Origin: an uncultured Bacilli bacterium
GTDB lineage: Bacteria > Bacillota_I > Bacilli_A > RF39 > UBA660
Assembly: GCA_934096715.1 (NCBI GenBank)
Contig: CAKOMQ010000004.1
Span: 2,051-66,050 of the forward strand
Length of the DNA stretch: 64,000 bases
Direction: 5' to 3'
Under the pieces are notes generated by a model that saw only the letters and a program-made list of their open reading frames with translations, was not told the origin of the DNA and did not search any database. The translations under genes and the position numbers were made by a program. This document shows, one piece after another, positions 5,085 to 48,646 of this stretch. Position 1 is the first letter of the stretch. Every line of letters starts with the position of its first letter.

Positions 5085-6849
5085 CTAAATCCGTTTCTAT
5101 ATCTTCTGTGTCATTATCACTTTGATAAACAGTTATTGAGAATGTAGCATTTTCTTTTACCACACTTCCTGCTTTTCTACTTTGACTTATGATATCTCCG
5201 TTTTTATGATTACCTACAGAACTATACTTAATAGTTAACTTAAGCTTATATTGTTCAGCAAAGTTTTCAACGTCTGTAACACTTTTAGTACCATCAGTAA
5301 AGTCTGGATATAATTCACCTATTTGAGCGTAAGTTAAAGTGATTGTGTCACCTGAATGAATTTTTTCTCCTGGCTCAACTGATTGACCAATTATATCTCC
5401 ATCTTTGTATTCAGTTTTAGGATCACTTATTACTTCTGATTTTTCTTCAACACTTATTCCTTTACTATTAAGCATTCCTTTAACTTCTAGATAATTTTTG
5501 CCTTTGTAGTCTTCAACAGTTACAGTACCTTCTCCACTTGAAATATATAGTTTTACTGTAGATCCTTTCTTACGATTATTACCACTTCCAGGACTAGTTT
5601 TAACTACTTTACCTTCATCTATATTTTCACTAACAATATTTTCTTGTTCATCACTAACAACAAAACCTGCTTTTTGTAGTATTTTAGTTGCTTCACTTAT
5701 TGTTTTATTAGATACATCTGGTACTTCAATTGTACTTCCTTTTGTAAATAATGTTATACAGACAAATACCGCAGTTATAGCGACTACTAGTCCTGTAAAT
5801 ACTATTGCTAATTTTATTAATAAACTATTTTGTTTTTTCATATCTTCCTCTTTAATTTGCTTTATTTCGATAGTTTTATCTAAATCTTCATTCTTTTTCT
5901 TCTCTACTTTAGGAGATTTAGCTTCCTTTTTAACTTCAACTTTTTCTTTTTTTACTGGTTGAATAGCACGAGTTTCATCACTAATTTCATTATATTTTAG
6001 AGTAATCTTTGGTTCATTTATTCTTGATGGATCTAAGCAAGTAAGTAAATCTTCATGCATCTCTCTTGCATCAGCATATCTGTTTTTAGGATTCTTAGCT
6101 GTTGCTTTAATTATAATATTTTCAACACTTTGGGGTATTGAAGGATTCTCTTCTCTGACACCAGGGACATTTTCTTTTAAATGCTTTAATGCTATTTCAA
6201 CAGCGTTATCTCCTTTAAATGGAAGTTTTCCTGTTAATAATTCATAGAATAATATACCTATTGAATAGATATCACTTTGAAGTGTTGCTCCTTTTCCACT
6301 AGCTTGTTCTGGTGGTAAGTAATGAACACTACCCATAACTGAGTTAGTTTGAGTTAGTTGAGTAGAATTCATAGCCATGGCAATACCAAAGTCTGTTATT
6401 TTAACTAAACCATTTTCAAGGATCAAAATATTTTGGGGTTTAATATCACGATGTATTATATAAGAATCATGCGCAACACTTAAACCAGCTGTAATTTGAA
6501 GCACTATATCGACAGCTTCACTTACCGTAAGTTTTCCACGTTTTTTAATAAGACTCTTTAAGTGTTTGCCTTCAATATATTCCATTACAATATAGTATTC
6601 ACCATTATCTTCACCAACATCATATACTTCAACAATATTTGGATGAGATAAACTACTTGCTGCCAAGGCTTCACGTTGAAATCTTCTAACAAATTTTTCA
6701 TCATTAGCAAGATCTCCCCTTAATACTTTAACAGCAACATCTCGATCAAGAATGGTATCATAAGCTAAATAAACATTAGCCATTCCACCTTCACCAATAC
6801 TTTTTATTATTTGGTAACGATCGTTTATTTTTTGACCTTTCATTACCAT
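5077..6849 (-). CDS. prkC: Ser/Thr protein kinase with PASTA repeats
   Basis: 590 aa. Hanks kinase motifs (HRDIKPQNIL, DFGIA), a TM segment and three C-terminal PASTA-like repeats. Confidence 0.9.
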   Translation of the reverse strand: MVMKGQKINDRYQIIKSIGEGGMANVYLAYDTILDRDVAVKVLRGDLANDEKFVRRFQREALAASSLSHPNIVEVYDVGEDNGEYYIVMEYIEGKHLKSLIKKRGKLTVSEAVDIVLQITAGLSVAHDSYIIHRDIKPQNILILENGLVKITDFGIAMAMNSTQLTQTNSVMGSVHYLPPEQASGKGATLQSDIYSIGILFYELLTGKLPFKGDNAVEIALKHLKENVPGVREENPSIPQSVENIIIKATAKNPKNRYADAREMHEDLLTCLDPSRINEPKITLKYNEISDETRAIQPVKKEKVEVKKEAKSPKVEKKKNEDLDKTIEIKQIKEEDMKKQNSLLIKLAIVFTGLVVAITAVFVCITLFTKGSTIEVPDVSNKTISEATKILQKAGFVVSDEQENIVSENIDEGKVVKTSPGSGNNRKKGSTVKLYISSGEGTVTVEDYKGKNYLEVKGMLNSKGISVEEKSEVISDPKTEYKDGDIIGQSVEPGEKIHSGDTITLTYAQIGELYPDFTDGTKSVTDVENFAEQYKLKLTIKYSSVGNHKNGDIISQSRKAGSVVKENATFSITVYQSDNDTEDIETDLDD

Positions 6850-7592
6850 TATTCTTCACCACTTTCTTTAACTAAGTAGGCTACTGAAATATTATCATTT
6901 CCACCTCTAGCATTACATTTTCTAATCAACTTTTCAACCTTTTCATTTATATCTAAATCATCTTCATCTAAAACTTTTTCAATTTGACTATCTGTTAACA
7001 TATTTGTTAAACCATCACTACATAAGAATACACCATCATAATCACTTTCAACAGCAAAGATGTCTATTTCCGCTTTTTCACTAGCACCAAGAGCTTTCAT
7101 CAAAACATTCTTTTGGGGATGATTCTTAGCTTCTTCTTCACTTATATTACCTGCTGCCACCAAAAGATTTACTAGTGTATGGTCATTTGTTACTTTATGT
7201 AGTTTTTTATTCTTAATAACATATCCTGATGAATCACCAATGTTACCAAATATTAAGAATGTATCAGTTACTAGTGCACATACGATAGTAGTTCCTAATC
7301 CAACTGAATCTTCATGTTCTAATCCATAAGTAAGTATTTCATTATTTATATCATTAACTGTATCATTTAACCAGTTTATAGCGTCTAGTTTAGTTCCAAC
7401 CGTTGATAGTTGGTTAAATCTTTTACCAAGAGATGTTACTACAATACTACTAGCAACTTCTCCTTTTCGGTGTCCACCCATACCATCTGCCACTATTAGT
7501 AAGTATTCACCACTAGTGTTTTTTAAAATAGTAACACTATCTTCGTTATGGCTTCTTACTCTTCCTGAGTCAGTTAAATAACTTGTTTTCAT
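6849..7592 (-). CDS. stp: PP2C-family Ser/Thr phosphatase
   Basis: 247 aa. ADGMGGH, CSDGL and GGNDNIS motifs; coupled to prkC. Confidence 0.9.
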   Translation of the reverse strand: MKTSYLTDSGRVRSHNEDSVTILKNTSGEYLLIVADGMGGHRKGEVASSIVVTSLGKRFNQLSTVGTKLDAINWLNDTVNDINNEILTYGLEHEDSVGLGTTIVCALVTDTFLIFGNIGDSSGYVIKNKKLHKVTNDHTLVNLLVAAGNISEEEAKNHPQKNVLMKALGASEKAEIDIFAVESDYDGVFLCSDGLTNMLTDSQIEKVLDEDDLDINEKVEKLIRKCNARGGNDNISVAYLVKESGEE

Positions 7593-11706: not shown

Positions 11707-11733
11707 TGCAAAATCGACTGCGTCGATTTTGCA
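11707..11733 (-). other. 12-bp-stem hairpin 16 nt after the stop codon of the 515-aa gene, upstream of its real terminator
   Basis: tgcaaaatcgac-tgc-gtcgattttgca is a perfect inverted repeat and lies inside the GC-elevated tract. Confidence 0.6.
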
Positions 11734-11748
11734 CTATTATCGAACGCC

Positions 11749-13296
11749 CTATTGGATCATGAACGGATCGTCCAAAGAGCCTTCACCGCTTAAAAATGCT
11801 TGATTCGACGTAAGATAGAAGACTGGGCGCACCGCACCAGAAACATTCACGTAGTAGTTGGACACGTAACCATTGTCATTGACACCCCACGCATAGCGGT
11901 AGCCACTACCATTAACTCCAGTACGAGAAAGTGTCCATTCCCATGAATCCTTTGCAGTATCATTATTACTTGGATGCATCCAGCCTGTTTTTAGTGTATC
12001 TTTGTTATCAACAGTACTTCCTGTTATTGCTAAAGCACTTGAACCTAATGATAATGTATAATCACTTACATACATTAAGCCTATTTTTGCACTTGGTGTT
12101 GTCCATTCGCCAACTGTACTTGTTTTCGTACTTCTATTCATTTCATGTAAATATATTTGGCCTGGTGTTAAACTGATGTAATAATTTGGTCCATTACTTC
12201 CATCGGATGTTTTTGTATTTACTGCACTCCATGTCCAATTTTCTATACGATTACTCCATTCTGTATTTTGCAAGTAATCATATTTTGCACTTGTTAAGAA
12301 ATAACTTCCGTTAAGTCTTTTATACATATCACTGTTTTCCCATGATATATCTGTATTATAGTCCGGATGCCATGCATAGTAACCTATTTCATTACCTAAT
12401 TGTTTATATTTAATTAGTTTAACATGGCTATCTCCATTTGCATCTGAGAATACTCCAAGCACTCTATACATATATTTATCTTGATTTGCTGTACAAGTAG
12501 ATTTATCTGTTGTACCAAAACATATAAAGTTATTTGGATTTGTACTAGTTCCTACTGCCCCACTTCCTGTATATCTATAGCCATCGCCTTCTAGTCCACT
12601 TTGCCATAATTTTCCACTTGCTATTAATTTATCTGCTAGTGGTGTTGAGTCAGCATGTAATTTACAAGAAAATGCTTTTTTATCTCCACTTGTATATGGT
12701 TCTATTTTTATTGTGTATGAATTACCTACTAATTTATCTTGAGTAGTTGCTGTATTTGTTATACTACTTGTTAGTGGTATTGATACACTATTTCCTTTTG
12801 TTAAGTTTTTAATTTCTCCACTTACTATAATGCCTGTAGTTCCAGCAGTTGTAAGTTCCTTAAGAGTCATAGTCTTATCTCCTACTACTACTTTTACATC
12901 ATTATCTGAGTTATCAGTGATTGGAGTTGTTACAGTTGCTGTTACTTTATAATTATAAGTACAGTCTAGTGCTTCATCTCCTTCTGGTAAACTTGCTGTT
13001 GCTAATATGTAATTTGGATTAGTAGTTAGTGCTAGTCCATTTTCATTTTCATTAGCATAATAAGTCTTTCCTGCATTTGCTTGACTCATTAAGTTTGCAT
13101 CTAAATTTAAATATAACTTAGATGTTTTAATTTGCATTGTTGGATTTCCTAAGTTGTTGGCTTTACCTGTTACCTTAGCACCTGTTTGATCATTACTTGC
13201 ATTAATACTAAAGTACGCATATGTTCCACCTATTAATAGTAATAGAGCAAAAGTGAATGCTACAACTATAAGTTGCTTTTTGTTCATATTTTTCAT
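11749..13296 (-). CDS. Secreted surface protein, paralog A: SipW-type signal peptide, TasA/camelysin-like region and DUF1566/C-type-lectin-like C-terminal module
   Basis: 515 aa. N-terminus KKQLIVVAFTFALLLLIGGTYAYFS matches the SipW-cognate signal class (GGT.A.F). C-terminal ...EWTLSR...YAWGVNDNGYV...GAVRPVFYL resembles the W..S...AW.V...G.....VR.V ending of DUF1566/DUF6273-type lectin-like domains. Confidence 0.75.
   Translation of the reverse strand: MKNMNKKQLIVVAFTFALLLLIGGTYAYFSINASNDQTGAKVTGKANNLGNPTMQIKTSKLYLNLDANLMSQANAGKTYYANENENGLALTTNPNYILATASLPEGDEALDCTYNYKVTATVTTPITDNSDNDVKVVVGDKTMTLKELTTAGTTGIIVSGEIKNLTKGNSVSIPLTSSITNTATTQDKLVGNSYTIKIEPYTSGDKKAFSCKLHADSTPLADKLIASGKLWQSGLEGDGYRYTGSGAVGTSTNPNNFICFGTTDKSTCTANQDKYMYRVLGVFSDANGDSHVKLIKYKQLGNEIGYYAWHPDYNTDISWENSDMYKRLNGSYFLTSAKYDYLQNTEWSNRIENWTWSAVNTKTSDGSNGPNYYISLTPGQIYLHEMNRSTKTSTVGEWTTPSAKIGLMYVSDYTLSLGSSALAITGSTVDNKDTLKTGWMHPSNNDTAKDSWEWTLSRTGVNGSGYRYAWGVNDNGYVSNYYVNVSGAVRPVFYLTSNQAFLSGEGSLDDPFMIQ
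11821..11930 (-). other. GC-rich, adenine-poor NNY-codon patch in paralog A (DGR variable-region-like)
   Basis: Hand count gives 59 G+C in 11801-11920 (120 nt), against a very AT-rich surrounding. Of the 31 codons between LSR and RPVFYL, only one ends in A. Genome-atypical codons cgc, gcg, ggc, gtc, tac and aac are used. Confidence 0.4.
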
Positions 13297-14841: not shown

Positions 14842-16377
14842 TTATGGAGTAATCATATATGGATCAGTAAGTGTACCTGTACCAGTTTTTCTTGTTACTT
14901 TACTGTCTAAATAGAATACTGGTCTTATTCCGTAGTCTGTTGTAACATTTGTATTAGTGATATAACCATTTGGATTAATAGTCCAGCTATAATTTGTTGT
15001 TGCACTAGATGTTCCTAAACCATAAGATGCTGTAGTATGTTCTGTATTATAGTTACCTGTAGTGTTTCCATATTTATTATTACCTAGGAATAACCAACTA
15101 GTTTTTAATGTACTTTGATTAGAATAAGTCCCAGTAGTCATACTCTTAGCTGTATCTCCTAGTGATAATACGTAATCACTAACATTCATAGCAACTATTT
15201 TTAATGTGTTATCATGCCATTGTCCAGTTGTTGTTGTTTTTCCAGTTCTATTCATTTCATGTAAATATATTTGACTTGGAGATAAACTATTATAGTAATT
15301 AGGACCACCTTCAAGCGTTAAAGTAACTACATCTCTTTTGCCTTCTTCACTTATGGCTGCTAACCACGCACTAGATTCTCCGAGATAATCGTATGTTTGA
15401 TTACCAATAAATAAATTTGGCATAGATGTTGCACTAGGAGAATTCCCATTTAGTCTATTAGATAATACATTTGGACCGAAAGATAGAATTCCTTGACCAA
15501 ATCTAGTACCTGCTGTAAATGCAGCGTTTGATGATAAACTAGTTAGTTTTATAAGTTTAGTATAGTTATCAAATACGCCAATAATTCGATACATATATTT
15601 ATCAGGATTACTTTTACATGTTTCTTGATCTATTGTACCAAAACAGACAAAGTTAGATGGAGTTGTACTTGTATTGTAGGCTCCTGTTCCAACAAAACGA
15701 TAGCCATCACCTTCTAGTCCACTTTGCCACATATTACCATTCTTGATTAAATAATCTGATAAAGGAATTTCTTTTTCGGTATCTTCTTCAGGTATATCTG
15801 GATCAATATACTTACCAGTATTAAGATTATTTTTACCATAGTAATTTATAATAAAATCATTATAAGTATAGTTATTATCTTTACTTTCTTTCTCTTTTTC
15901 ATAAACAGGAATAACTATTTTTAAATACGTATTACCTTTATTATTATTATCTCCTAGTTTAATAGATATATTTTCTACATCTACTTCTAAGTCTTCGCTT
16001 AATCCCCAGATAGCGTTCTTTCCATAAGCATCATTATAAACTATTTCATATAAATCATTTTCTTCTTTATTAACAAGAATAATAGATTTACCTACTAAAG
16101 TATTTATCGTAATCATTGTTTTATCATCACTTAATATAACTGGTATTGGTTCTTCATCGTTGTAAGCTAGACCAAAGTGAATTAAATTCTCTTGTACATT
16201 ATCAACAAGAAGGTCTCTCATAACATTGTCATCATAGTTTTTATCCATTTCATTAAAAGCTAAATTATTTACTAAGGTATGCAAAAAAATTAATATTACA
16301 GATAATAATACTATACTTACTATAAGTTCTATTAATGTCATCCCTTTATTATTTTTCATATAATTATATTCTATCAT
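14842..16377 (-). CDS. Modular type IV pilin-like protein, paralog B: prepilin N-terminus plus the same DUF1566/lectin-like module
   Basis: 511 aa. Class III signal KNNKG/MTLIELIVSIVLL with Glu at +5. The C-terminal ~300 aa align with paralogs A and C (MWQSGLEGDGYRF...FVCFG...DKYMYRIIGVF...GIRPVFYL). The real start may be the internal Met at 16359. Confidence 0.75.
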   Translation of the reverse strand: MIEYNYMKNNKGMTLIELIVSIVLLSVILIFLHTLVNNLAFNEMDKNYDDNVMRDLLVDNVQENLIHFGLAYNDEEPIPVILSDDKTMITINTLVGKSIILVNKEENDLYEIVYNDAYGKNAIWGLSEDLEVDVENISIKLGDNNNKGNTYLKIVIPVYEKEKESKDNNYTYNDFIINYYGKNNLNTGKYIDPDIPEEDTEKEIPLSDYLIKNGNMWQSGLEGDGYRFVGTGAYNTSTTPSNFVCFGTIDQETCKSNPDKYMYRIIGVFDNYTKLIKLTSLSSNAAFTAGTRFGQGILSFGPNVLSNRLNGNSPSATSMPNLFIGNQTYDYLGESSAWLAAISEEGKRDVVTLTLEGGPNYYNSLSPSQIYLHEMNRTGKTTTTGQWHDNTLKIVAMNVSDYVLSLGDTAKSMTTGTYSNQSTLKTSWLFLGNNKYGNTTGNYNTEHTTASYGLGTSSATTNYSWTINPNGYITNTNVTTDYGIRPVFYLDSKVTRKTGTGTLTDPYMITP

Positions 16378-16437
16378 TATTTTTTCTATTAGACAATCTT
16401 AATATATTTTGTTATTATATATATAAGGATAAAGAAT

Positions 16438-16983
16438 ATGAAGAATAAAAATGGATTTGTATCAATGACAACTATTTTAACATTAGTATTAACTGTAAGT
16501 AGTCTTCTCTTACTTAATTTAACTGTGCTTATAGATGAAAAAGCGCTTACTAATAAAATAAAAGATAATTCTAGAAATAATATTAAGTCTTCTGATGAGC
16601 CTTATTGTTATTGGTCTGATGAAACTACATTAGTTATACCTTATGAAAGTAAAGATAAAAAAGCTAGTGGTACTGTTTCTTTAAATTGTTATCATCCTAA
16701 TACGATATCATTAAAGAATGACTTAACACTTGAAGGATTAGCTAATAAAGAATTATATAAGTCTTCTAGTGATTATTTATCAATAGATGAAATAAATCCT
16801 AGCGAGTTATCTGGTGGTTATGGATATAAAATTATATTCTCTATTAGTAGTACTAAATTAACTAGTGATGATAATTATTACACAATTACTTTAAACGAAG
16901 GTTTATTTTGTTATAACAATATTTGTAATGAAGAAGTTGTTAGTAACAAGATAAAAGTGGCGAAGGAGTATAATCATGAATAA
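16438..16983 (+). CDS. Minor pseudopilin-like protein (non-canonical N-terminus)
   Basis: 181 aa. KNKNGFVSMTTILTLVL has a Gly-Phe cleavage-like site followed by a hydrophobic helix but lacks Glu+5. Overlaps the next pilin gene by 8 nt. Confidence 0.4.
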   Translation: MKNKNGFVSMTTILTLVLTVSSLLLLNLTVLIDEKALTNKIKDNSRNNIKSSDEPYCYWSDETTLVIPYESKDKKASGTVSLNCYHPNTISLKNDLTLEGLANKELYKSSSDYLSIDEINPSELSGGYGYKIIFSISSTKLTSDDNYYTITLNEGLFCYNNICNEEVVSNKIKVAKEYNHE

Positions 16984-18589
16984 TAAGGGATTTACATTAA
17001 TCGAGTTAATTGCTGTTCTTGCAATAATGGGAATACTTTTTACTATAGGTATTGCGACTTTTAATTTTAAGGGTAATACAGAAGAAGATACTAAGAAAGC
17101 TAATATAAATACTGTTGAAAAAGCAATAAATGTTTATTATAAAATATTATCTCAAAAAGGAAAATTAAATTATTCTAAAGATAGCGAAGAAACAGCGTTT
17201 TGTGTATCTTATGAAAATCTTGTAAAGAATGGATATTTAGTGGAAAGTAAAATACCTACTGATGAAAATGGCAATAAATATAAGTATGCTACTGTTACTA
17301 TTAAGAATAATCAATTAGCATATGTTAATACAAATCTTACAGAATCTTGTAAAAAAGAAAAAACTAATATAACACCTATTAAAAATAAAAGTGGTAATCA
17401 AGGAGAAAATCAAGATGATACTGAAACAGTAAACTCTTATGAATTTAATAGTACTATAAATCAAACAAGTGAGAATACTTATAAAGTTGATTCTAAATTT
17501 AGAATGACTATTAGTCAAAATATTGATATAACTGAGTATAGACCTATTTATACATTTATTGTTCTTGATAGGTCTGGATCTATGGGTGGATCTCCTATAG
17601 CAAATGCAGTTGCATCCATTAAAAATCTTACTACTGATTTATATAATGAAAATATGAAAGATGCTCCCAATCCAGATAAACCAAATAATAAACCTATTTA
17701 TTGTACGAGCGTAGTTAAATTTGGTGATTCATCATATGTAGAAACTCCATTTACTCACAATATTATTTCTCCAGGAACTAGTGCTCCTGACGGAACAATT
17801 TATTATATGCCAATGCAATTAATAAATAATACTCTTTTATCAAATATGAGTGCTTATATAGCTGGTGACTCGGATGTTTGCAAAAATGCTTTAAATAATA
17901 ATCCGTTATACTTTATCTTATTTTTAAGTGATGGTGGTCCATTTGATGGATATGGTGAAAGTGGCGACGGTACAACTTTAAAATATAATACTGAGCAATT
18001 GAAGGCAAAAGGTGTTTATATTTTTACAATCAGTTATGGTTATGGAAATAATTCACATCTTAAATGTATGGCATCTAAAGTTCTTGGTGAAAACGAAACA
18101 TACACTGATGCAGATTATAAACTATGTAATACATATTCAGATGCATCTAAATTAATTGGATATAACGCAACTGGTACTGGTACAAAAGTATTCTATTTTG
18201 AATCTAGTCAACAACAATCTTCTCTCTCTGAAATATTTAAAACTTTTAGTACTGTAGCTAGAAAAGAATCTCAAAAAACTGAATATGATAAAATTAATAT
18301 AACATTTACTATTAATAATAAGTATTTTAAATTAGATAATAATAGCAAAGAATTTAAAAGTTCTATGAATATAGATTCTATGGAAACTAAATTTTTAACA
18401 AGTAAAAATGATTTTAATATAACATTAATTAATGATAACTTTGAAGGAACAGAAATAAAACTATTTAAAAGTATTAAACTTGAATTTATAGATTATGATG
18501 GTAAAGTGGATAATAAAACTGTTGAAGTACCAGAAAACCAACTACCTAAAGTTAATGTATATAAGTATAAAGACACCTTAATCAACTAG
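16976..18589 (+). CDS. Modular type IV pilin with von Willebrand factor A module
   Basis: 537 aa. Canonical NNKG/FTLIELIAVLAIMGIL prepilin motif, MIDAS-like VLDRSGSMGG (DxSxS) and LFLSDGGP. Confidence 0.8.
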   Translation: MNNKGFTLIELIAVLAIMGILFTIGIATFNFKGNTEEDTKKANINTVEKAINVYYKILSQKGKLNYSKDSEETAFCVSYENLVKNGYLVESKIPTDENGNKYKYATVTIKNNQLAYVNTNLTESCKKEKTNITPIKNKSGNQGENQDDTETVNSYEFNSTINQTSENTYKVDSKFRMTISQNIDITEYRPIYTFIVLDRSGSMGGSPIANAVASIKNLTTDLYNENMKDAPNPDKPNNKPIYCTSVVKFGDSSYVETPFTHNIISPGTSAPDGTIYYMPMQLINNTLLSNMSAYIAGDSDVCKNALNNNPLYFILFLSDGGPFDGYGESGDGTTLKYNTEQLKAKGVYIFTISYGYGNNSHLKCMASKVLGENETYTDADYKLCNTYSDASKLIGYNATGTGTKVFYFESSQQQSSLSEIFKTFSTVARKESQKTEYDKINITFTINNKYFKLDNNSKEFKSSMNIDSMETKFLTSKNDFNITLINDNFEGTEIKLFKSIKLEFIDYDGKVDNKTVEVPENQLPKVNVYKYKDTLIN

Positions 18590-23942: not shown

Positions 23943-25002
23943 TATTTATAAGGTATAAACTGAAAATCAAAGTATGTATAATATCCACCTTTTGGACAAT
24001 TTAAATATTCTGTAATTTGATTGGCTGCTGTATCAGATATTTTATTTATTCTAACAGCAGTATCGTCGGTTTGAACTAATGGTACAACATATCTTGTCTT
24101 TGCTTTTATATTAACACAATATTTTTCATCAGCAGGCATTGTACTTTTATAAACTGTATCTGCATCTTGAAATAATTTAAAACAATCTGATAATTATCTT
24201 CACAAGTTAAAATTTTATCAATTACTTCTTGTTCTGAAAGTGTATATAAATCTTCTACTGTTAAATAACCAACATTATTCATTGACTTACACATATCTGC
24301 TAAAAATTGCATTACTGTTCTATCTTTATCGCTTACCCATTCAGGCCATAATTTTGAAATTGTATCTATATATTCTTCACAAACTTCTTTATCTTTGAAA
24401 GCAAGTTCTTGTATACCATCTTCATTTGCTGTTACTACAATGTTGTTATACATTTTTCTAATTTTATCTAATTCCCAAACTCTGAAAAAAGTTAATCCAC
24501 TTGCAAATGTATATTCAAATCTATCAGCAGATAATTTTGGTGTATCATTATCCGCTATAGGATAAATTTTATAGTCATCTACTTCTTCTAACTTTATACC
24601 ATCTCTTTTTAGTAAACTCATTATTTTTGAAGAATTTCTAATAATGTCAGATGTTTTTTCTTCAGTAGACTCTTGAATTTCTGAATCACCATTCATAAAA
24701 TCTATACAATGTTTAAATACAGGTGTAGCAATATCGTGGAATAGACCTGCTAATGTTTGTTTCTTGTCGTGTGTAAAGTGCCAAATAATTAAGGCAACAC
24801 CAACACTATGATCTAAATTAGAATACCAATATCTAACGTTAAAGCATTTAGAATAATCTGTACCACAACTCATACTTATTTTACTAATTCTTTCCATTTC
24901 AGGAGTATCAATATATTCTAATAACCATTCTGGAAACTCTGGTGATAAAATACTAAAATATTCTTTTACTTCATCATTTAAACTATCATAATATTTATTC
25001 AT
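23942..25002 (-). pseudogene. HD-domain phosphohydrolase-like gene, split by a 1-nt frameshift
   Basis: ORFs 24106-25011 (HD motif HSVGVALI...GLFHDIATP) and 23942-24139 overlap in different frames. Shifting frame near gattgttttaaattatttcaa (about 24160-24185) gives a continuous ...EDNY.DCFKLFQDADTVYKSTMPADEKY... The ATG at 25002 is preferred over the GTG at 25011. Confidence 0.55.
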
Positions 25003-25019
25003 TATAATCACTACCTTTC

Positions 25020-25682
25020 TTACTTACAACATACATCAAAAAAATCTTTTTCATACTTTGTTTTCTTTATCATTCCCTTTGTTATATCTAATTTATCTAA
25101 AAACTCGGATTTATATTTCATTATTTCTTTCCCATTTTCAATAGAAGTATATATTTTTTCATCTATATAGTATTGGTCATCATCGATTTCAATCAATTTT
25201 AATCTTTCCAACTTATTTAGACTCTTTATGACTTTATTTTCTGAAATATTAACATAAAAATCACTAGTTAATAAATAATCTAATATGGGTGTAGTACCTT
25301 TTTCCTTGTTTTTTTGTAGCACATAAAGTGGAATTACTATTTTACTATATATTTTTGTAAAAATTTTAAAATCATTTGAATCCATTTGTTTGATAACCTC
25401 TGAAAAACTTGGATGAACATTTTCCTTTTTTGCTATATCCATATCAGAAGCCATTAAATTTAAATATAATTGTTTTATATCTTCTTTGCCCCAATTGTAA
25501 CTAATAGCTTGTGCAGACTGAATAAATATACTTGGATCAGCATCAACTATGTTTTCTGCGTTTTTGATTTCTAGTTTTCTTTGTAATTCTTGTTCAAATT
25601 CTTTAACTATAGACTCTCTGTTAATACACCACATTTCAGCTTTTGCCAATACATTTTTTACAACTCTAGGAACTAATCTCAC
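25020..25682 (-). CDS. Abi-alpha (DUF4393)-like protein
   Basis: 220 aa. The central segment LYLNLMASDMD...VHPSFSEVIKQMDSNDFKIF resembles the Abi-alpha family core as I remember it. No search was possible. Confidence 0.35.
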   Translation of the reverse strand: MRLVPRVVKNVLAKAEMWCINRESIVKEFEQELQRKLEIKNAENIVDADPSIFIQSAQAISYNWGKEDIKQLYLNLMASDMDIAKKENVHPSFSEVIKQMDSNDFKIFTKIYSKIVIPLYVLQKNKEKGTTPILDYLLTSDFYVNISENKVIKSLNKLERLKLIEIDDDQYYIDEKIYTSIENGKEIMKYKSEFLDKLDITKGMIKKTKYEKDFFDVCCK

Positions 25683-25700
25683 TGATAAATTGTAATATAA

Positions 25701-26261
25701 TTAACAATGACCACCGTTATCTTTAAAATATGATTCAATATATTTTACCAAAATTTTAGCTTTGTTAAATTGTTTGTCTTTAACAACATTTATAATATAA
25801 TCACTACCACTTGCATCAATAATATTATCATCTTTATCATATTCTATTAGATAAGTATACTTTTCTTCATTAAGTAGGCAGTTAAGAAGAACAGTTTGAT
25901 TATCTTTTATAGTCATTGAGTCTCTTTTAGAATCAAACATAATATTTATAAAAATGTCAATAGCAAAACAAACAATAAAAATTATTATCAAGATTTTTAA
26001 TATCTTAATTATTATCTCTGTATGTTTTTCAGTATTATTTACTTTTTCTACTAATACTTGTTTAATATCATTATTTAATAATTCATCAATACTAACATTC
26101 AATGCTTTAGATAATAATTTTAACTGTTCAGGATTTGGAGAAGTTTCACCAAGCTCCCAATTTGATATTGTTTGTCTAGTTACGCCAATTTTTTCTGCTA
26201 ATTGTTCTTGTGAAAGTTTGCAATCTTTTCTTAGTTTGAAAATATTATCTCCTAACTTCAT
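25701..26261 (-). CDS. XRE-family HTH protein with TM segment and C-terminal domain
   Basis: Start moved to the Met at 26261 (RBS aaaggag 7 nt upstream). HTH LSQEQLAEKIGVTRQTISNWELGETSP, followed by one TM helix. Confidence 0.75.
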   Translation of the reverse strand: MKLGDNIFKLRKDCKLSQEQLAEKIGVTRQTISNWELGETSPNPEQLKLLSKALNVSIDELLNNDIKQVLVEKVNNTEKHTEIIIKILKILIIIFIVCFAIDIFINIMFDSKRDSMTIKDNQTVLLNCLLNEEKYTYLIEYDKDDNIIDASGSDYIINVVKDKQFNKAKILVKYIESYFKDNGGHC

Positions 26262-26369
26262 TCTTATTTCTCCTTTCACTAACAATAATATATATGTTAG
26301 TCTGGGATTTCTACCAAATGTCTTTGGAAGTTTGTCAAAGACTTTTAACAATTATAATACAAGTAACTA

Positions 26370-26750
26370 TTATTCTACATCACAAGACCAAAGCCCATGC
26401 TTATTACAATATGCATATAATTTTGATCCTTTTATATATTTGAATTTACATTCTGCACTTTGTTCTGGTAATAATTTAACTTTACAAATATCTTTGTCAT
26501 TAACCATTGCAATCCATTCAATAAAATGTTCTTTTTCCATGACGTGATTAACTTTTACAAGTATGCAATCATCAGCATATTCAAAAGTCGGAATATGTTT
26601 TTCAAACGATGCATCAACACTATTTGAAATTAACTTTACCATAGGTTTGCCACAACAAGTTATTCCACACTCATCACAGTTACAGTCATTAATAGCCTCA
26701 ACTAATGCACCACATTTTTGACATTTTTTAATTATTAATTCATTTTTCAT
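26370..26750 (-). CDS. dfx: Desulfoferrodoxin (superoxide reductase)
   Basis: 126 aa. N-terminal desulforedoxin CxxC...CC, then KHIP, HVMEKEHFIEWI and YCNKHGLW, which are the neelaredoxin-centre ligand motifs. Confidence 0.85.
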   Translation of the reverse strand: MKNELIIKKCQKCGALVEAINDCNCDECGITCCGKPMVKLISNSVDASFEKHIPTFEYADDCILVKVNHVMEKEHFIEWIAMVNDKDICKVKLLPEQSAECKFKYIKGSKLYAYCNKHGLWSCDVE

Positions 26751-26878
26751 TTGTTTCCTCCTTATATAACAAGTTATATTAATTATAACTAAATAATTGT
26801 AATTTAGCTAGTATCTAATTGTTCTCTGTGTTTATAAAATGAAGTTTGAAAGCACAATTTCTTAGATTTTATATCTTT

Positions 26879-26920
26879 GGCAAAGTTAATGAAAAAGCAT
26901 AAATTTTCATTAACTTTGTC
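26879..26920. promoter_or_regulatory. 15-17 bp perfect palindrome upstream of dfx
   Basis: caaagttaatgaaaa (26881-26895) and ttttcattaactttg (26904-26918), separated by 8 nt. No flanking T-run, so operator-like rather than terminator-like. Confidence 0.25.
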
Positions 26921-44813: not shown

Positions 44814-46385
44814 CTATTCTAAAATAAATGGATTTTCTAGAGAGCCATCTCCATCAGCAGTAATTTTAACATCATTAGTTAGATAGAAGACTGGGCGCGA
44901 ACCATACGCACCGACCACAATGTCGCTGTTGAAATAGCCACTACTATCGACAAGCCACGCATGAAAGCGACCACCACCAGCCCCATGACGAGAAAGCGCC
45001 CATTCATAAGTGCTCTTTGTAGTATCATTATTACTTTGATGCATCCAGCCTGTCTTTAATAAAGTATAATTAGTGTCAGTACCTGTTGTTAATGCTAACG
45101 CACTTGACCCCAATGACAATGCATAATCACTTGCATACATTAAGCCTATCTTTCCTGTTGGTGTTGTCCATACACCACCATTACAATTTACTGCAGTTTG
45201 TCCATAGTTCTTACATAATGTTTCTGATGATGTTTTATGCATTTCATTTAAGTATATTCCTTTTGGAGAACTTCTATAATAACTAGTATTATTTGTTTGG
45301 TCTTCATATGTTTTTGTATTTACTGCACTCCATGTCCAATTTTCTATTTTATTTGACCATGTAGTATTTTGTAAATAATCATATGTTGTATTTGTTAAGA
45401 AATAACTTCCGTTAAGTCCTTTATACATATCACTGTTTTCCCATGATATATCATTGTAAAGATCTGAGTTCCATGCAGTTGATACCAATTGTTTATATTT
45501 AATTAGTTTAACATGATTTTCTCCGCTTGCATCTGAGAATACTCCTAATACTCTATACATATATTTATCTTGATTTGCTGTACATGTAGATTTATCTGTT
45601 GTACCAAAGCATATAAAGTTATTTGGATTTGTACTAGTTCCTACTGCACCACTACCTGTATATCTATAACCATCTCCTTCTAGTCCACTTTGCCATAATT
45701 TTCCACTTGCGATTAAATGATCTGCTAGTGGTGTTGAATCAGCATGTAGTTTGCAAGAAAATGCTTTTGTATCCCCGCTTGTATATGGTTCTATATTTAT
45801 TGTGTATGAATTACCCACTAGTTTATCTTGTGTATTTGCAGTATTTGTTACACTACTTGTTAGTGGTATTGATACACTTTGTACTTTTGTTAAGTTTTTG
45901 ATTTCTCCACTTACTATAATGCCTGTAGTTCCTGCAGTTGTAAGTTCCTTAAGAGTCATAGTCTTATCTCCAACTACTACTTTAACATCATTATCTGAGT
46001 TATCAGTGATTGGAGTTGTTACTGTTGCTGTTACTTTATAATTATAAGTACAATCTACTGCTTCATCTCCTTCTGGTAATTGAGCTGTTGCTAATGTATA
46101 ATTTGGATTAGTAGTTAATGCTAGTCCACTTTCGTTTTCATTAGCATAATAAGTCTTGCCTGCATTTGCTTGACTCATTAGATTTGCATCTAAATTTAGA
46201 TATAACTTAGATGTTTTAATTTGCATTGTTGGATTTCCCAAGCTGTTTGCTTTACCTGCTACCTTTGCTCCTGTCTTATCGTTGCTCGCATTTATACTAA
46301 AGTATGCATATGTTCCACCTACTAATAGTAATAGAGCAAAAGTGAATGCAACTACTATTAGTTGCTTTTTTTCTAGTTTTTTCAT
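44814..46385 (-). CDS. Secreted surface protein, paralog C: SipW-type signal, TasA-like region and DUF1566/lectin-like module
   Basis: 523 aa. By my manual count, the first ~296 aa differ from paralog A at about 20 positions with no indels. The distal part is mosaic. The C-terminus is ...EWALSR...HAWLVDSSGYF...GSRPVFYL. Confidence 0.75.
   Translation of the reverse strand: MKKLEKKQLIVVAFTFALLLLVGGTYAYFSINASNDKTGAKVAGKANSLGNPTMQIKTSKLYLNLDANLMSQANAGKTYYANENESGLALTTNPNYTLATAQLPEGDEAVDCTYNYKVTATVTTPITDNSDNDVKVVVGDKTMTLKELTTAGTTGIIVSGEIKNLTKVQSVSIPLTSSVTNTANTQDKLVGNSYTINIEPYTSGDTKAFSCKLHADSTPLADHLIASGKLWQSGLEGDGYRYTGSGAVGTSTNPNNFICFGTTDKSTCTANQDKYMYRVLGVFSDASGENHVKLIKYKQLVSTAWNSDLYNDISWENSDMYKGLNGSYFLTNTTYDYLQNTTWSNKIENWTWSAVNTKTYEDQTNNTSYYRSSPKGIYLNEMHKTSSETLCKNYGQTAVNCNGGVWTTPTGKIGLMYASDYALSLGSSALALTTGTDTNYTLLKTGWMHQSNNDTTKSTYEWALSRHGAGGGRFHAWLVDSSGYFNSDIVVGAYGSRPVFYLTNDVKITADGDGSLENPFILE
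44889..45000 (-). other. GC-rich, adenine-poor NNY-codon patch in paralog C (DGR variable-region-like)
   Basis: Hand count gives 66 G+C in 44881-45000 (120 nt). None of the 30 codons between LSR and RPVFYL ends in A, and 13 of these 90 nt are A. Ends in the same 18-mer gcgcccagtcttctatct as paralog A. Confidence 0.4.
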
Positions 46386-48133: not shown

Positions 48134-48646
48134 TTATTGATTATATACAGGTACTAAAGTTACATATGCATTTAGTGAGTCTGCTGGTAATACTATATTC
48201 GTAGATATAGCACTAGCTCTTAATGAGATAACATCTCCACTATTTAAATTAAGTATAACACTACCGTCTGTACTTCCAGCAGCTGTTAAAGATATTCTAG
48301 TAGTTGGTACTTCAACACCATTAACATATATACTTACTGCACTACCTGCTGTACTACTAGCATTTATACCATAGTTAAGTAAATATGTTCCACCATTATT
48401 TACTGTCATTCCAGTTGATGTAACAGTTGAATTTTTAAACGCTTGTGGATTACTAAAATTTATTGGAGTATTCACAGCAGTAATTGTTTGAGTTGCAGTA
48501 TTTAATAGTTCTGCAACTGCCATACTGCTAGTTGGAAGTATTCTTGTTACATCTCCTTGACAACAACAACCTACTCCACCACCATTTCTAACTATATTTT
48601 GTGCTCTACTAAGAGAGTTATTTTTGCAACAATTTGCCAATATCAT
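48134..48646 (-). CDS. Cys-rich N-terminus plus BclA-C/ExsF(BxpB)-like TNF-fold domain protein (possible spore-surface protein)
   Basis: 170 aa. N-terminal CC...GCCCQG. The C-terminal GTYLLNYGINAS...GSVILNLNSGDVISLRA...NAYVTLV parallels GIYQISYTLTIS...SGVILINLNPGDLIRIVP...AAALTVAQIS of Bacillus BxpB, as I recall it. Confidence 0.45.
   Translation of the reverse strand: MILANCCKNNSLSRAQNIVRNGGGVGCCCQGDVTRILPTSSMAVAELLNTATQTITAVNTPINFSNPQAFKNSTVTSTGMTVNNGGTYLLNYGINASSTAGSAVSIYVNGVEVPTTRISLTAAGSTDGSVILNLNSGDVISLRASAISTNIVLPADSLNAYVTLVPVYNQ

Follow-up and report, generated by a model that had tools for sequence, protein, structure and literature searches.

A GC-rich, adenine-depleted patch in a DUF6273-like protein gene of an uncultured Bacilli bacterium, a probable variable region of a remote retroelement target

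In the BPP-1 diversity-generating retroelement (DGR; mtd-avd-TR-brt), a template repeat (TR) lies between avd and brt and adjoins the target, in which a variable region (VR) with an AAY adenine signature occupies the 3' end of a ligand-binding protein gene. The VR closes in a GC-rich 3' element that is common to the TR, after which VR-specific sequence (initiation of mutagenic homing, IMH) and TR-specific sequence (IMH*) part; a structured RNA is found 3' of the TR and an inverted repeat downstream of the target. Published DGR hairpins have GC-rich stems of 7-10 bp with a GRNA loop, at a distance of 4-34 bp (PMC3240598). Remote targets are known from Treponema denticola (PMC4891356) and, according to the available part of the survey by Wu et al. 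2018, from 45 of 372 DGRs (PMC5758913). In such systems the VRs sit in several surface-protein paralogues elsewhere on the chromosome, far from the core cassette, and are diversified in trans; all of them match one TR beside the reverse transcriptase (RT). The same part of the survey treats the TR as a core component beside the RT, and it describes no architecture with a TR away from the RT (PMC5758913). In phages, the VR lies at the C-terminal end of DUF6273 domains, on surface beta-hairpins, as in the tentaclins of nd4 and nd12 and in the Faecalibacterium prophages Lelie, CP11, Roos and Pioen (PMC10743442, PMC11792537); one of these papers calls the domain C-type-lectin-like. These phage targets are tail or receptor-binding proteins in canonical cassettes with an RT. 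Neisseria pilE/pilS and Borrelia vlsE are other multi-copy surface-protein families, with antigenic variation through gene conversion from silent cassettes; there, too, conserved sequence encloses a hypervariable segment. Here we analyzed a 64,000-nt stretch of a 26% GC chromosome from an uncultured Bacilli bacterium (assembly GCA_934096715.1, contig CAKOMQ010000004.1, positions 2,051 to 66,050), hereafter the window, which holds three paralogous genes that we call A, B and C. A GC-rich, adenine-depleted patch near the 3' end of paralog C is very probably the VR of a remote DGR target, a secreted or surface protein whose DUF6273-like, lectin-type domain has the patch at its C-terminal tip.

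Composition and variation of the paralog C patch

Paralog C (44814-46385, minus strand; 523 aa in the open reading frame (ORF) list, 100% identical to protein P0001) begins with a membrane or signal segment; its N-terminal half is conserved, and a DUF6273-like domain forms the C-terminal part. The 120 nt at 44881-45000 contain 66 G+C, about 5 standard deviations above the window mean of 31.6 per 120 nt (standard deviation 6.6), and a count of 58 or more per 120 nt occurs nowhere in the 64-kb window except at 44863-45056 and 11715-11951. None of the 30 codons between LSR and RPVFYL (44898-44987, minus strand) ended in A (third bases T16, C8, G6), whereas 48% of the codons in the rest of the gene did so; the chance of finding 0 of 30 is ~3e-9. 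Adenine accounted for 12 of the 90 nt in these codons as compared to 41% of the rest of the gene. An earlier sequence-only reading of the window had given the same G+C count and the same absence of A-ending codons, while its figure of 13 adenines was too high by one. The VR itself was placed at 44899-44999 (minus strand), from the GCG codon that follows Glu-Trp to a TCG codon, and has a GC content of 55%.

The 3' end of the VR is formed by an IMH-like 18-mer, GCGCCCAGTCTTCTATCT (44881-44898, minus strand), which encodes (S)RPVFYL. In the window this 18-mer was present twice and no more, on the minus strand in each case, and the second copy (11813-11830) closes the patch of paralog A, as had been claimed from the letters. 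The next-best match was more than 3 mismatches away, and the chance expectation was 0.01 matches. Paralog A (11749-13296, minus strand; 515 aa, identical to P0102) is a second putative target of the family, and its VR together with the 18-mer (11813-11934, minus strand) is one codon longer than that of C. Immediately 3' of RPVFYL the sequence of paralog C falls to 32% GC, which agrees with the sharp compositional edge described earlier; in paralog A the GC-rich stretch continues past the stop codon and reaches into a hairpin. Paralog B (14842-16377, minus strand; 511 aa) has a prepilin-type N-terminus and the same C-terminal domain. Its patch is AT-rich and not diversified, and it encodes the same RPVFYL motif in AT-rich codons, reading AGA CCA GTA TTC TAT TTA at the homologous place just as the sequence-only reading had it.

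We modeled residues 215-523 of paralog C, the DUF6273-like globular domain (44817-45743, minus strand), by AlphaFold2. With a diverse alignment the mean predicted local distance difference test (pLDDT) score was 96.6 and the patch fell on C-terminal beta-hairpins; with close homologues alone the pLDDT was 40 and the model was unusable. The best Foldseek neighbours of the model were phage DUF6273 and receptor-binding proteins (E 2e-7), and a profile search against PDB sequences gave no match. A profile of the C-terminal domain retrieved 1,119 proteins, many of which carry a precomputed PF19789 (DUF6273) assignment. Paralogs B and C are 38% identical across the domain, and the C-terminus of B scored 24.6 bits (cut-off 23.5) against the latter half of Pfam DUF6273, with the match ending at RPVFYL. 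At the N-terminus, A and C start with a hydrophobic segment and a weak SipW-type signal motif (E 0.006 in C, under the curated cut-off), and B matched Pfam N_methyl and the NCBIfam prepilin domain. The model and the domain matches thus place the patch, as a predicted VR, at the 3' end of a gene for a DUF6273-like ligand-binding domain, the position that VRs take in BPP-1 and in the phage DUF6273 targets. Unlike those phage targets, the genes described here belong to a large chromosomal family with SipW- or prepilin-type N-termini in an uncultured, spore-forming member of the gut Bacilli.

Paralog C had 459 detectable homologues; almost all of their 90%-identity clusters were single-member, and almost every cluster had its own VR. 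In an alignment of 47, column entropy was at most 0.3 bits across most of the N-terminal half and peaked at ~2 bits exactly in the patch. Among 104 distinct tips we found a fixed scaffold, EW-T-L-S-R-x-G-...-F-x-A-W-x-V-...-G-x-V-xxxx-V-...-R-P-V-F-Y-L, and 14 hypervariable columns that were filled with N, D, S, Y, G, H, F, R, I, A, V, T, L, C and P. The residues K, E, Q, M and W made up just 42 of the 1456 residues in these columns (2.9%), unlike the source genome, which is rich in Lys and Glu. Substitution of the adenines in an AAY codon yields this residue set. In the hypervariable codons of 7 equal-length VR DNAs, entropy at positions 1, 2 and 3 was 1.39, 1.21 and 0.64 bits, respectively, and the third base was C or T in 122 of 140 codons. 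This codon pattern is opposite to that of ordinary divergence and is the known footprint of adenine-specific mutagenic retrohoming by DGRs. The AAY-codon spectrum of a DGR target is therefore indicated indirectly in the source species, and directly in the relatives described below.

Cassette shuffling without reverse transcription would offer another route to such variation. Homologous recombination or gene conversion among paralogues or strains, with crossovers in the EWTLSR... and ...RPVFYL flanks, would then act as in pilin or VlsE antigenic variation. There are at least 14 paralogues per genome, and their flanking DNA, including the 18-mer, is conserved. The tails are mosaic, since SNQAYLGG... 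and SDVKITADG... each occur with any VR, and one contig (L047) carries both C-locus and A-locus flanks. Subsets of VRs across strains also show linked non-adenine differences (TLSRxGA...SDG vs TLARxGD...DDG), as recombining subtypes would. However, shuffling redistributes diversity and creates none. It fails to explain variation at codon positions 1 and 2 over a fixed C/T third base, the near-absence of K/E/Q/M/W, a GC-rich and A-poor patch in a 26% GC genome, and the Asn-codon-rich non-coding templates that we detected in relatives. A repeat search of the window found three full-length paralogues only and no silent partial cassettes that might serve as gene-conversion donors, in contrast to pilE/pilS and vlsE, and a codon-position and adenine signature is not made by gene conversion. 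We consider it quite unlikely that shuffling accounts for the patch. Recombination among paralogues, of which the mosaic tails and the hybrid contig leave little doubt, probably acts alongside retrohoming, not in its place.

Strain comparison bears on a further alternative, namely a stable patch that was imported from a GC-rich donor or owes its GC content to the encoded amino acids. Its sharp 3' compositional edge in C and its Gly, Ala and Arg codons would fit such an origin. The sequence-only reading had named a patch fixed across strains as evidence that would tell against its own proposal, and the patch proved to vary. At the A locus of another strain the flanks were 97-98% identical while the VR was only ~65% identical (39-44 of 60 in VR windows). 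No other part of the protein varies as much across strains as the patch does, which contradicts a stable import; between identical flanks every homologue has a GC-rich patch of its own, and paralog B encodes the same fold in AT-rich codons. Searches of the phage collection and of viral contigs found nothing similar. A tblastn search of the C tip against 50,697 phage records gave no match. A 17-mer IMH pattern had 11 matches in viral contigs, which is chance level, and a VR/TR-agnostic 5' pattern had 0 matches in viral contigs and one chance match in a metagenome collection. The IMH* and conserved 3'-domain motifs had 0 matches in viral contigs. An imported or merely compositional patch is very improbable on this evidence.

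Template cassettes of related genomes and the 3' junction

We built a search pattern from the invariant positions of six VRs, agnostic as to TR or target, and scanned it against one genome per species. The scan returned 20 loci, mostly in 'uncultured Bacilli bacterium' genomes from human (Hadza) and rabbit gut. Half of the relevant loci were targets (EWTM(S/T)RYG...AVRPVFYL), while the others were non-coding and adenine-rich with stop codons upstream. The latter comprised nine free-standing TR cassettes in four related Bacilli genomes (loci L023, L024 with three copies, L034, L035, L036, L038 and L020). Each cassette runs in the order TATAAT box, conserved leader, TR, short variable linker, CCTTCTATAACTTGA, 35-nt block and terminator. 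The TR is 94-103 nt long with 26-37 A and reads AGGTATGGC...GCGTGG AAT GTG AAT ... GGC AAC TTG AAC AAC AAC AAT GTG AAC AAT ACG AAT GCG GTT CGCC. The 35-nt block 3' of the TR was identical in eight rabbit-gut copies from three genomes. The RNA 3' of the TR showed a conserved structure in which CUUCUAU..CUU is paired with AAG-AUAGAAG around a hairpin, with 10 compensatory pairs, which is reminiscent of the structured RNA 3' of the BPP-1 TR; Rfam held no family for the cassettes. With a promoter and a terminator, these adenine-rich non-coding templates differ from pilS-type coding cassettes. They also differ from BPP-1 in being separate small transcription units with no RT within 4-10 kb.

The third bases of the TR codons (AAT, AAT, AAC, AAC AAC AAC AAT, AAC AAT ACG AAT) are the fixed or dominant third bases of the VRs in the window's species. 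When each VR of the relatives was compared with its best equal-length TR, 19-24 mismatches fell at TR adenines and 5-9 elsewhere, although A makes up only ~37% of the sites. As a rule a cassette is found 270-330 nt downstream of a target gene, and the relatives' TRs came in lengths of 94, 97, 100 and 103 nt within one genome. The VRs of one sister strain of the source species measured 120, 123, 126, 129 and 132 nt. The sequence-only reading had held that the A and C patches cannot be sister VRs of one template, and the existence of templates in several lengths is in line with this; together with the linked VR variants it gives the one-codon difference between A and C a natural explanation. Differences between copies of the cassette fall mainly at those adenine sites which also vary among the targets; the templates, too, may now and then be rewritten, or they may be decaying.

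The TR and VR alignments of the relatives also located the 3' junction. Homology runs to ...GTTCGCCCAG and then splits, the VR reading ...TCTTCTATCT and the TR ...CCTTCTATAACTTGA. At the junction the VR reads CGCCCAGTCTTCTATCT and the TR reads CGCC(C/TTA/AGA)AGCCTTCTATAAC. More broadly, VRs read ...GC(G/C)GT(G/T)CGCCCAGTCTTCTATCT and the relatives' TRs read ...GCGGTTCGCC(C/TTA/AGA/A)AGCCTTCTATAACTTGA; past the shared segment, targets go on TCTTCTATCT and templates go on CCTTCTATAAC. Since the homology ends within the 18-mer, the 18-mer behaves as an IMH. It spans the 3' limit of homology in the manner of the IMH/IMH* pair of BPP-1, and a corresponding function is predicted. The earlier proposal, in which a segment made from cDNA has a fixed IMH-like sequence as its end point, gains from both lines of evidence, the AAY-type variation in the patch and the end of TR/VR homology inside the 18-mer.

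A 12-bp inverted repeat that could form a hairpin or cruciform (11707-11733, minus strand; DNA fold z -3.0) lies just past the stop codon of paralog A, recalling the inverted repeat downstream of the BPP-1 target. It was kept in sister strain L003 with a loop change only, and GC-rich hairpins similarly follow target genes in L035 and L046. Unlike published DGR hairpins, the stem of A is 12 bp with a 3-nt loop, is ~80 nt from the IMH-like element and has no GRNA loop, and C has none.

The three cassettes of L024 / L057 (GCA_947589435.1) alternate with DUF3800 genes. In sister strain L003 a DUF3800 gene (6302-7027) lies ~3 kb upstream of the position that corresponds to the window's start.

Searches in the source species and the proposed mechanism

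Several results weigh against a DGR acting on paralog C. An ungapped TR search of the window with both VRs, tolerating mismatches at A in the window, returned self or paralogue matches only. The ~110 kb of flanks around 12 same-species paralogs contained no TR, which with the window brings the searched sequence of the species to ~170 kb. Window ORFs of at least 150 aa gave no RVT_1 match in Pfam, and phmmer with the Brt protein of BPP-1 as query gave no match at E<=10 among the six-frame ORFs of the window or of the analyzed loci up to L046. No RT was detected within ±4 kb of the nine TR cassettes or within ±10 kb of the three-TR array with DUF3800 genes. The 120 nt downstream of paralog C held no stable hairpin (fold z +0.5). 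Foldseek comparison with solved C-type lectins, including the DUF1566 domain of Legionella Lcl, was not significant (E>=0.5), and because of this the assignment of a lectin fold rests on the literature. In the relatives, TR/VR mismatches were at A in ~75-81% of cases, a bias that is not exclusive, and adjacent TR/VR pairs were often one codon apart. Finally, one other sample (P0007) had a C VR identical to that of the window, so that C may no longer be diversified.

Other searches gave the same picture. A scan of the window for AAY-codon runs found nothing template-like. No RT appeared in the precomputed neighbour lists, including the Pfam lists of L054-L059, within ±10 kb of the 12 same-species paralogues, or adjoining the relative on viral contig L046 (IMG/VR). 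Avd/HRDC-like families were absent from the Pfam results for window ORFs, ORFs beside three TR cassettes and neighbour lists, with no search directed at Avd. The 64 kb thus differ from BPP-1 in that no TR, Avd or RT was found in them. N-terminal peptides found no relative among the contigs of one genome per species, and the source species is therefore not among the species representatives. The sequence-only reading had asked whether templates, donors and an RT exist; templates do exist in the lineage, while neither a template nor an RT was found in the searched sequence of the source species. Paralog B was tried as a template and rejected, as its mismatches to A and C were not adenine-specific, both in the scan and by eye.

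These negatives would also be expected if the patch were a fossil VR, diversified by a past DGR whose templates and RT have since been lost and now, in C, slowly drifting. Besides the lack of a TR or RT in ~170 kb of the source species, the missing hairpin of C, the identical C VR of P0007 and at least one paralogue with a decayed VR (L041 19412) would be explained in this way, and for C specifically a fossil VR is possible. On the other hand, the A-locus VR differs strongly between strains despite its near-identical flanks, and nearly each 90%-identity cluster has a distinct VR. Decay at 26% GC should quickly restore A/T, whereas 0 of the 30 patch codons end in A. The searched sequence is also a small part of a genome whose size we guess at 1.5-2 Mb from a related Bacilli chromosome of 1.46 Mb (CP091726.1). 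A fossil VR is, in our view, unlikely, and diversification of C may be ongoing.

Under the preferred reading of the patch as a remote DGR target, an RNA with an Asn-codon-rich TR would be reverse-transcribed with random misincorporation opposite adenines, and the cDNA would then replace the VR. The 3' junction would be set by the conserved GC-rich CGCCCAGTCTTCTATCT, which is IMH-like, and the 5' junction by homology. If a template A may become any base in a 26% GC genome, the VR would come to be GC-rich and adenine-poor while the C/T third bases of AAY codons were kept. The genome would have many targets, at least 3 in the window and at least 14 in a sister strain, and by analogy with related genomes several free-standing TR RNA genes, unequal in length, would serve them; A and C would accordingly differ by one codon. 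The source species would then have TRs, and an RT would act on them.

Such an arrangement would resemble remote-target DGRs in that several chromosomal surface-protein paralogues have VRs far from a core cassette and would be diversified in trans. It would differ from them in the templates. Remote-target DGRs have one TR beside the RT that all VRs match, whereas here one genome has at least 5 VR length classes (120-132 nt), and the relatives have several TRs of different length, most of them next to a target of their own and none adjoining an RT. We tentatively propose, as a scheme that may well prove wrong, that the lineage has a distributed DGR. Twelve or more surface-protein genes of the chromosome would each draw on one among many free-standing template RNA genes, which would differ in length and comprise promoter, TR, conserved structured 3' domain and terminator, while a single RT would be encoded at a distance or come from a mobile element. 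In this scheme the templates may also be rewritten at adenine sites. No published description of detached and multiplied templates was found, and such a layout would lie outside the known cassette architectures; the target itself is of a known kind.

If this is true, a gut bacterium with a small genome would have at least 14 hypervariable, lectin-like surface proteins per genome, some of them pilin-anchored, which would point to intense selection on the binding partners of the cell, whether it binds them or they bind it (such as phage, host glycans or antibody). DGR templates would also be separable from the RT and multiplied as independent small RNA genes. RT-first neighbourhood surveys state that they cannot detect remote targets (PMC8144416), and they would miss these targets along with their templates. 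A free-standing TR cassette with an invariant 3' domain would be a compact, portable template module and may be of interest for DGR-based directed evolution.

Family members, neighbouring genes and other observations

Two family members had an altered VR. A sister-strain paralogue (L041 19412-19543) has a VR with A-ending, Lys and Gln codons and a decayed look, and the VR of another strain (protein P0047) is interrupted by a frameshift. Judging by these sequences, not all copies of the family are maintained. In L047, a contig from a Nepal gut sample, the upstream flank of the C locus is joined to the downstream flank of the A locus via a hybrid paralogue. This contig reflects either a genuine A/C recombination or a chimera of the assembly. 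The C orthologue is broken in most metagenome contigs, L047 being the sole complete one.

A divergent ORF near paralog B (16976-18589, within the region 14842-18589) has a prepilin motif and a von Willebrand A domain. Given the prepilin motifs in paralog B and in this ORF, a type IV pilus-like fibre may carry part of the family. Near paralog C, the product of the gene at 48134-48646 has a BclA C-terminal domain, which is of exosporium type. Sister contigs carry SpoVA and spore-coat genes, from which the source organism can be taken to form spores. The other genes of the window include those for RNase J, Fmt, UppS, UvrA, enolase, PFOR and RecG. The region 24106-28922 is likely a small defence island, with an HD-domain ORF, Abi_alpha, an HTH regulator and an OLD-family AAA_15 plus TOPRIM protein. 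A 1511-aa ORF without a Pfam match (31476-36011) contains three repeats of ~90 nt at a spacing of ~420 nt.

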